The notes under the pieces: generated by a model
Told to the model about the DNA's origin: nothing
The model's input: the letters and a program-made list of their open reading frames with translations, nothing else
The model's database searches: none
Program-made: the position numbers and the translations under genes
NCBI RefSeq assembly: GCF_003334405.1
Contig: NZ_QOWM01000005.1
DNA length: 64,000 nucleotides
DNA from: Escherichia coli
Lineage (GTDB): Bacteria; Pseudomonadota; Gammaproteobacteria; Enterobacterales; Enterobacteriaceae
Reading direction: 5' to 3' (one strand)
In this document: piece by piece, positions 17,705 to 17,884 of the stretch
Numbering within the stretch: position 1 is the first letter of the stretch
How the letters are laid out: every line of letters begins with the position of its first letter

Positions 17705-17884
17705 GCCTGTTATTTATCCTGTAAAAAAATATGTACATGAGAAATTACTATAAAAATTTGTACTATTAGTAAAACTCGTTATTTTTATGCATGTTTATAT
17801 TCATCATACAATTATATAACCATTTCCCGGTATCGCTTTGCTTTAGCGAGAACTGGTCTTTTATTCGCACTCAGGAGTACATGT

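Follow-up and report, generated by a model that had tools for sequence, protein, structure and literature searches.

We consider it likely that the DNA at positions 17705-17884 of the window (the whole 64-kb stretch of Escherichia coli DNA analysed here) is the regulatory region of adiY, in which two proteins, H-NS over an AT-rich island and YieP at the -10 element, hold a weak sigma-70 promoter low. A post-transcriptional input would be added at the leader, and acid would be read by the AdiY protein elsewhere.

In the proposed scheme, the AT-rich, TpA-rich and locally curved tract at about 17711-17790, just upstream of and over the promoter, would serve as a platform for H-NS, and the H-NS filament formed there would exclude or trap RNA polymerase at adiY. 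The sigma-70 promoter (TTTATG-17 bp-TACAAT, start at about 17819) would be intrinsically weak and have its -10 element occupied by YieP. The leader of about 66 nt would present a conserved hairpin with a U-tract, followed by the SD/ATG region that has been reported as a target of SgrS. As a net result, adiY would be kept low and nearly constitutive, the acid signal not being read at PadiY; acid would lead to protonation of AdiY and, by this route, to activation of PadiA and PadiC.

The region is a known regulatory region and its control by H-NS has already been published. The additions made here are small and incremental: a conserved predicted -10 element that lies within a probable YieP operator and has the same sequence as the yohJ site, a conserved leader hairpin with a U-tract, and recurrent insertion of IS1. 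In about 320 bp, published inputs from H-NS, YieP, Lrp, GalR, SgrS/Hfq and the neighbouring AdiZ terminator are integrated. This is of relevance since the amount of AdiY per cell sets the threshold of the system and its cell-to-cell heterogeneity.

Location and gene context

The open reading frames near the region are all on the plus strand and encode 756 aa (15290-17560), 253 aa (17885-18646) and 445 aa (18783-20120). A 601-bp query over the spacer gave matches in 5,417 of 5,426 complete E. coli genomes, and the RefSeq annotation of the matched genomes identified adiA and adiY as the flanking genes, with adiC downstream. The 324-bp spacer (17561-17884) was identical to the adiA-adiY spacer of E. 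coli K-12 MG1655, where it lies on the opposite strand; MG1655 coordinates are obtained as 4,355,814 minus the window position. The region had been described beforehand as a promoter region upstream of adiY. This is in good agreement with the use of a 300-bp upstream fragment as PadiY reporter (PMC12826058) and with the conserved -35/-10 pair found at 17784-17812. The coordinates of all features are collected in Table 1.

The interval 17705-17884 begins right past the T-run of the adiA terminator and stops one base short of the adiY start codon (ATG, 17885). In the terminator scan, the hairpin was placed at 17678-17696 and the T8 run at 17697-17704, and both could be aligned in Escherichia, E. 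fergusonii, Salmonella and Citrobacter. The adiA 3'UTR with this conserved terminator has been described as the small RNA AdiZ in Salmonella and E. coli, the terminator forming the 3' end of AdiZ (PMC12746102). The predicted folding of the 3'UTR (17561-17704) was better than that of shuffled sequences (z = -2.5), with the strong terminator at its end.

No annotated feature was found under the spacer in 40 sampled RefSeq E. coli records or in the MG1655 record. An Rfam search of 15000-20500 with E values up to 1 retrieved no family, and none of the small ORFs of 23-45 aa in the spacer had support. Two GalR sites have been mapped by ChIP-chip at MG1655 positions 4338179 and 4338257, corresponding to 17628-17642 and 17550-17564 of the window (PMC5110547). 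These sites are 78 bp apart; the latter overlaps the adiA stop codon, the former falls within the AdiZ region, and both are upstream of and outside the AT-rich tract.

Table 1. Features of the adiY regulatory region (window coordinates)
Feature	Position	Strand	Description
AT-rich island	17441-18800		GC < 0.42 in 300-bp segments; 1.36 kb (1,360 bp)
adiA intrinsic terminator	17678-17704	+	GCGCGG-loop-CCGCGC + T8; upstream border of the AT-rich interval
AT-rich core	17711-17821		80% A+T; upstream TpA-rich tract plus core promoter
Conserved T(G/T)TACA element	17732-17737	+	About -87 to -82 from the predicted start; TACA invariant, flanks kept in most of the 13 orthologues
Conserved ATT(T)G(T/A)A element	17756-17763	+	About -63 to -56; E. 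coli ATTTGTA equals the left half of the YieP palindrome
Predicted -35, TTTATG	17784-17789	+	3/6 consensus; within block TA-TTTTATG (about 17780-17789), conserved in 13/13 orthologues
Probable YieP operator, AATTGTATGATGAAT	17799-17813	-	Overlaps the -10; reverse complement of the near-invariant block
Predicted -10, TACAAT	17807-17812	+	5/6 consensus; 17 bp past TTTATG
Predicted leader hairpin	17827-17856	+	CCGGU.UCGCU-loop-AGCGA..ACUGG; about -12.6 kcal/mol, internal loops
IS1 target site	17834-17842		9-bp duplication CGCTTTGCT, inside the leader hairpin; strain KFu022
U-rich tract, UCUUUUAUU	17857-17865	+	Directly 3' of the leader hairpin
adiY Shine-Dalgarno, GGAG	17874-17877	+	Invariant in all orthologues
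adiY coding sequence	17885-18646	+	253 aa, AraC/XylS-type activator

Composition and curvature of the AT-rich tract

The strong AT-richness claimed in the preliminary description is real, correctly placed and well beyond chance. The A+T content of 17705-17884 was 70.0%, compared with 47.8% for the whole window, and only 0.8% of all 180-bp segments reached 70% or more. The string quoted in that description was found verbatim at 17711-17821 (111 bp, 80.2% A+T), and the long A/T tracts were present as well, namely A7 at 17723-17729, A5 at 17752-17756, T5 at 17782-17786 and runs of A or T of up to 11 nt. This core was the most AT-rich 111-bp stretch of the window (top 0.03% of segments), and 80% A+T over 111 bp was reached at only one other locus, 42430-42554. 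TpA steps made up 18.2% of its dinucleotides against a window mean of 4.3%, an about fourfold excess (top 0.01% of segments).

The core is the peak of the longest low-GC block of the window, which covers the end of adiA, the intergenic region, the whole of adiY and the adiY-adiC spacer. The GC and GC3 values of adiY were 0.413 and 0.457, against 0.527/0.594 for adiA and 0.537/0.608 for adiC. In the orthologous tracts, A+T was 74-80% within Escherichia and 64-69% in other genera, including Salmonella, Citrobacter and Yokenella, where the promoter blocks were still conserved. The extreme A+T content is, as judged from these sequences, a feature of Escherichia.

Curvature was predicted with a wedge model, and the values were used for ranking only. 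A local peak, at the 99.5th percentile of the window, was found at 17749, about 70 bp before the predicted start; the overall curvature of the 180 bp, expressed as end-to-end ratio, was ordinary (31st percentile). The centres of the A-tracts were 28, 18.5 and 11.5 bp apart and thus lacked clean phasing. On the minus strand, the best match to a promoter (TTTATA-17 bp-TATTTT, 17731-17754) was located inside the AT-rich tract and directed at adiA. Spurious promoters of this sort in AT-rich DNA are the kind that H-NS is known to suppress.

Predicted adiY promoter

In order to evaluate conservation, 13 syntenic upstream regions were compared: two E. coli alleles, three other Escherichia lineages, E. 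albertii, E. fergusonii, Salmonella, Citrobacter amalonaticus, Pseudescherichia vulneris, an E. lignolyticus-like genome, Yokenella and Kosakonia. Two non-syntenic paralogues (Edwardsiella and C. arsenatis) served as negative controls. The contig search with AdiY alone retrieved close Escherichia species only, and the loci of Salmonella, Citrobacter, Yokenella, Pseudescherichia and Kosakonia were collected through protein homologues.

A consensus promoter scan of 17400-18100 called no promoter on the plus strand because the -35 hexamer matches at only three of six positions. A PWM scan and conservation were therefore used. The highest-scoring plus-strand promoter in the PWM scan was TTTATG-17 bp-TACAAT. 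The two hexamers, at a spacing of 17-18 bp, were found in 12 of the 13 orthologues, and TACAAT or CACAAT is embedded in a near-invariant TCATCA(T/C)ACAA block (17801-17811). Both blocks were kept in Escherichia, Salmonella, Citrobacter, Pseudescherichia, Yokenella and the E. lignolyticus-like genome, even where hdeA and not adiA is the upstream neighbour. Kosakonia, alone among the 13, was devoid of the -10/YieP block, apparently by deletion. From the position of the -10, transcription is predicted to start at about 17819, giving a leader of 66 nt, and a -10 close to consensus together with a poor -35 fits a weak promoter. The adiY gene was not listed in the two sets of TSS and 3'-end supplementary data searched.

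An alternative explanation is that the near-invariant TCATCATACAA block serves solely as an operator, for YieP or an IHF-like protein, and is not a -10; the real promoter would then be at another place within the AT-rich tract, such as TTGCCT-16-AAAAAT (17703-17730) or TTGTAC-16-TATTTT (17758-17785). AT-rich DNA is full of promoter-like sequences on both strands, and under a uniform background these candidates scored only 1-1.3 bits less than the top one; TTGCCT/AAAAAT was even marginally above it when an AT-rich background was used. However, their hexamers are not conserved beyond Escherichia, whereas TTTATG/TACAAT is kept in 12 of 13 orthologues, and TACAAT is the sole near-consensus -10. 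This alternative is therefore regarded as unlikely, and TTTATG/TACAAT is retained as the predicted adiY promoter.

The gene order around adiY varied among the genomes compared. In the E. lignolyticus-like genome, Yokenella and Kosakonia, an hdeA-like gene is located directly upstream of adiY-adiC. E. fergusonii has lost adiA and adiC. What it has kept, namely adiY with its promoter blocks and the terminator portion of the adiA 3'UTR, now lies between a DUF2238 gene and eptA.

Probable YieP operator and other regulators

The ChIP-exo motif of the GntR-type regulator YieP is palindromic, atTTGTaTGAcaAAT (PMC7642389). The site AATTGTATGATGAAT over the predicted -10 matched all 10 high-information positions of atTTGTaTGAcaAAT without any mismatch, and two zero-mismatch matches were found in the 64 kb, against 0.15 predicted from shuffles. 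As a positive control, yohJ and ykgE, the most strongly YieP-repressed operons, were inspected, and exactly one zero-mismatch TTGTNTGANNAAT site was found upstream of each; at yohJ this site, ATTGTATGATGAAT, is a 14-mer identical to that of adiY. Twelve of the 13 syntenic orthologues have a site with 0-1 mismatch, located at -81 to -87 relative to the ATG, and both non-syntenic paralogues lack it.

The match at 17799-17813 fits the published ChIP-exo and repression data. The adiY gene belongs to the YieP ChIP-exo regulon, and deletion of yieP raised its expression 12.3-fold in E. coli W by RNA-seq; with RT-PCR, the rise was about 2-fold in three strains; yohJK and ykgEFG were likewise derepressed in the deletion (PMC7642389). 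The sites differ in their positions, as the adiY site is located 74-86 nt upstream of the ATG, over the predicted -10, while the yohJ and ykgE sites are at -36 and -131. Unlike these two comparison sites, that of adiY also lies in an AT-rich island of the H-NS type. Since it overlaps TACAAT, occupancy of the -10 is the simplest mechanism of repression, and it is most likely by this occlusion that YieP would repress adiY.

The only other zero-mismatch match in the 64 kb was TTGTGTGACAAAT, on the minus strand at 4130-4142, 9-21 nt upstream of a 543-aa ORF (4151-5782). The latter is probably dcuS, judging by the MG1655 gene order. This match may represent an unlisted YieP target or may have arisen by chance.

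For Lrp, adiY is a genomic-SELEX target (PMC5320599). Lrp-like matches numbered 16 against 7 expected, and Lrp probably uses the same AT-rich DNA as H-NS. CsiR was discarded as a direct adiY repressor: its overexpression lowers adiY indirectly, and ChIP-seq showed no CsiR binding at adiY (PMC5217608).

Silencing by H-NS

H-NS nucleates and spreads on DNA of the AT-rich, TpA-rich and curved type. The extreme AT and TpA content and the 1.36-kb AT-rich island are traits that fit such a target, as may the local curvature peak. The high-affinity nucleation motif of H-NS is TCGATAAATT. No match with up to two mismatches was detected inside 17705-17884, where only three-mismatch matches occurred; the 1.36-kb island contained four two-mismatch matches against about two expected. 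The extreme composition, given the lack of a good TCGATAAATT match, supports a role of the tract as a non-specific AT-rich H-NS platform rather than as a specific nucleation site.

The silencing claim itself is supported by published gel shift and mutant data, with which the sequence is in agreement. In an hns mutant the adiY mRNA was about 5-fold up, and the derepression of adiA and adiC observed there needed adiY; in competitive gel shifts with AT-poor and bla-promoter DNA as internal controls, H-NS bound preferentially to the adiY promoter fragment (PMC2984483). In addition, lowering of hns mRNA by overexpression of a small RNA led to an increase of adiY (PMC3794604).

Alternatively, the AT-richness could be generic, resulting from a terminator tail, UP-element-like DNA and a promoter, in which case the H-NS effect would be indirect or non-specific in vitro and the operative repressors would be sequence-specific, namely YieP and perhaps Lrp or GalR. 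The strongest sequence-specific signal is indeed the YieP site and not an H-NS motif, deletion of yieP derepresses the gene up to 12-fold in E. coli W (PMC7642389), and GalR sites have been found by ChIP-chip at 17550-17564 and 17628-17642 (PMC5110547). Moreover, the early (2006) global H-NS ChIP studies did not list adiY (PMC2984483), and the tracts of Salmonella, Citrobacter and Yokenella, with only 64-69% A+T, accompany promoter blocks that are nevertheless conserved. On the other hand, 80% A+T over 111 bp is shared with a single other locus in the 64 kb and is hence atypical of intergenic DNA, and the low GC across the whole adiY gene is not accounted for by specific operators. The preferential binding in the presence of AT-poor and bla-promoter controls, the 5-fold rise in the hns mutant and the adiY-dependence of the adiA/adiC derepression also speak against it (PMC2984483). 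Taken together, a purely generic origin appears distinctly unlikely, and an H-NS platform over the promoter is the preferred reading.

The H-NS-repressed promoters of acid-resistance regulators, cadC, gadW, gadE, ydeO, evgA and adiY, are all bound by H-NS (PMC2984483), and gadX is likewise H-NS-repressed according to earlier work as cited there. The adiY gene, itself a listed member of this set, shares with those regulators an AT-rich control region, preferential H-NS binding and a several-fold derepression in the hns mutant. It differs from the gad genes in its response to other regulators. The gad genes are under RcsB/GadE control, whereas neither RcsB nor GadE had an effect on adiY (PMC2984483), for which no anti-silencer has been identified.

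Response of PadiY to pH and oxygen

The long A/T tracts had also been described as typical of H-NS-silenced, acid-induced promoters. The first part of this statement stands, based on the published rise of adiY mRNA and the gel shift. The second part is not well supported. The activity of a 300-bp PadiY-lux fusion was low whatever the pH and oxygen supply and rose modestly only in microaerobic acid, and no binding of AdiY to PadiY was detected by SPR at any pH (PMC12826058). The fusion was inactive in an adiY deletion (PMC12826058), and the best model gives no account of this inactivity in the face of absent AdiY binding.

In the same work, adiY is called constitutive or weakly inducible and pH sensing is assigned to histidine protonation of AdiY, whose tetramer binds PadiA and PadiC at low pH and causes strong induction (PMC12826058). 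These two are the acid-induced promoters of the system and belong to the same cluster and physiology as PadiY; the melR-adiA spacer, with a GC of 0.349, is AT-rich like that of adiY. Unlike PadiA and PadiC, which are bound and strongly induced by AdiY, PadiY is unbound and stays low (PMC12826058). The annotation can be corrected in this respect: the AT-rich tract marks the promoter of a silenced, low-level regulator and not an acid-induced one.

In Salmonella, adiY was found to be induced by anaerobiosis, and not by acid, by an "as-yet-unknown mechanism" (PMC12746102). An anaerobic rise of adiY has also been observed in Shigella and E. coli (PMC4229854). Consensus scans for FNR, CRP, ArcA and IHF, in which the cause of the anaerobic induction was sought, gave no match above shuffles.

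It could be argued that PadiY is truly acid-induced, low pH lifting H-NS silencing or recruiting a pH-responsive activator (AdiY or another) at the AT-rich tract, as at cadBA or adiA. This is considered very unlikely in view of the low reporter activity at all pH values and the lack of AdiY binding by SPR (PMC12826058), the response of Salmonella adiY to anaerobiosis but not to acid (PMC12746102) and the indifference of adiY to RcsB and GadE (PMC2984483). A second regulated architecture of the AdiY type for comparison was not found.

Leader RNA of adiY

A hairpin equivalent to that of the E. coli leader was predicted in 9 of 10 orthologous leaders, and the stems were unrelated in sequence: CGCCUCA/UGAGGCG in P. 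vulneris, GCCUCAA/UUGAGGU in Yokenella and CCG+AUCUC/GAGAU+CGG in Salmonella. Eight of 9 lineages had the combination of hairpin and U-tract in their predicted leaders, which arose in 0-11% of the shuffles of each sequence, a comparison in which the criterion was set post hoc and the sequences are related. RNAalifold returned no consensus structure for the leader alignment, which is explained by the fact that the MAFFT alignment is not a structural one. The leader hairpin was not called in the terminator scan.

The hairpin and U-tract look like a terminator or an Hfq-binding module, which should be taken as a lead and not as a result. It is conceivable, though improbable, that the leader at 17827-17865 is a transcription attenuator or an Hfq/sRNA docking module, such that most transcripts from PadiY would terminate ahead of adiY and the AdiY level would be set by read-through, for instance in anaerobiosis. 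If true, leader attenuation would explain the constantly low 300-bp PadiY reporter and would suggest how adiY is induced anaerobically, the mechanism of which was called "as-yet-unknown" (PMC12746102).

The small RNA SgrS has been reported to pair with and repress the adiY mRNA, according to the citations in PMC12746102 and PMC8989999. Duplex prediction placed the pairing zone at 17859-17891, over the SD and the ATG. The energy of the SgrS-adiY duplex was not above background, as it was not better than that of 7% of shuffles or 16% of genomic windows. The SgrS pairing step of the model is taken from the literature only.

Natural variation and IS1 insertions

Two main spacer alleles were found in E. 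coli: the K-12 type, with at least 99% identity, in 3,261 genomes, and a 94% type in about 1,600 genomes. The latter has 11 extra bp, CCTTTTTTTAG, after 17717, in the upstream AT-rich tract. Since the other Escherichia species have the longer form with these 11 bp, the K-12 allele looks like a deletion of one helical turn, between CCT repeats.

An IS1 element adjoins adiY in 8 of the 5,426 complete E. coli genomes, at no fewer than four different positions in or near the AT-rich spacer; strains KFu022, TOE3, STIN_95 and UTME-7 are among the carriers. The junction at 17834-17842 was common to four complete genomes, and in the other four IS1 was located about 80-320 bp further upstream. The bgl operon is also an AT-rich H-NS target, and its silencing is relieved by insertion of IS1 or IS5 near the promoter. 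The adiY locus resembles it in being an AT-rich H-NS target with repeated IS insertions close to the promoter. At adiY, unlike at bgl, there is no sign of activation by the insertions; the most frequent insertion (17834) lies between the predicted promoter and the gene and could activate adiY only by supplying an outward promoter. Strain UTME-7, one of those with IS1 by adiY, has no adiA, and an integrase gene and tRNA-Phe are found upstream.
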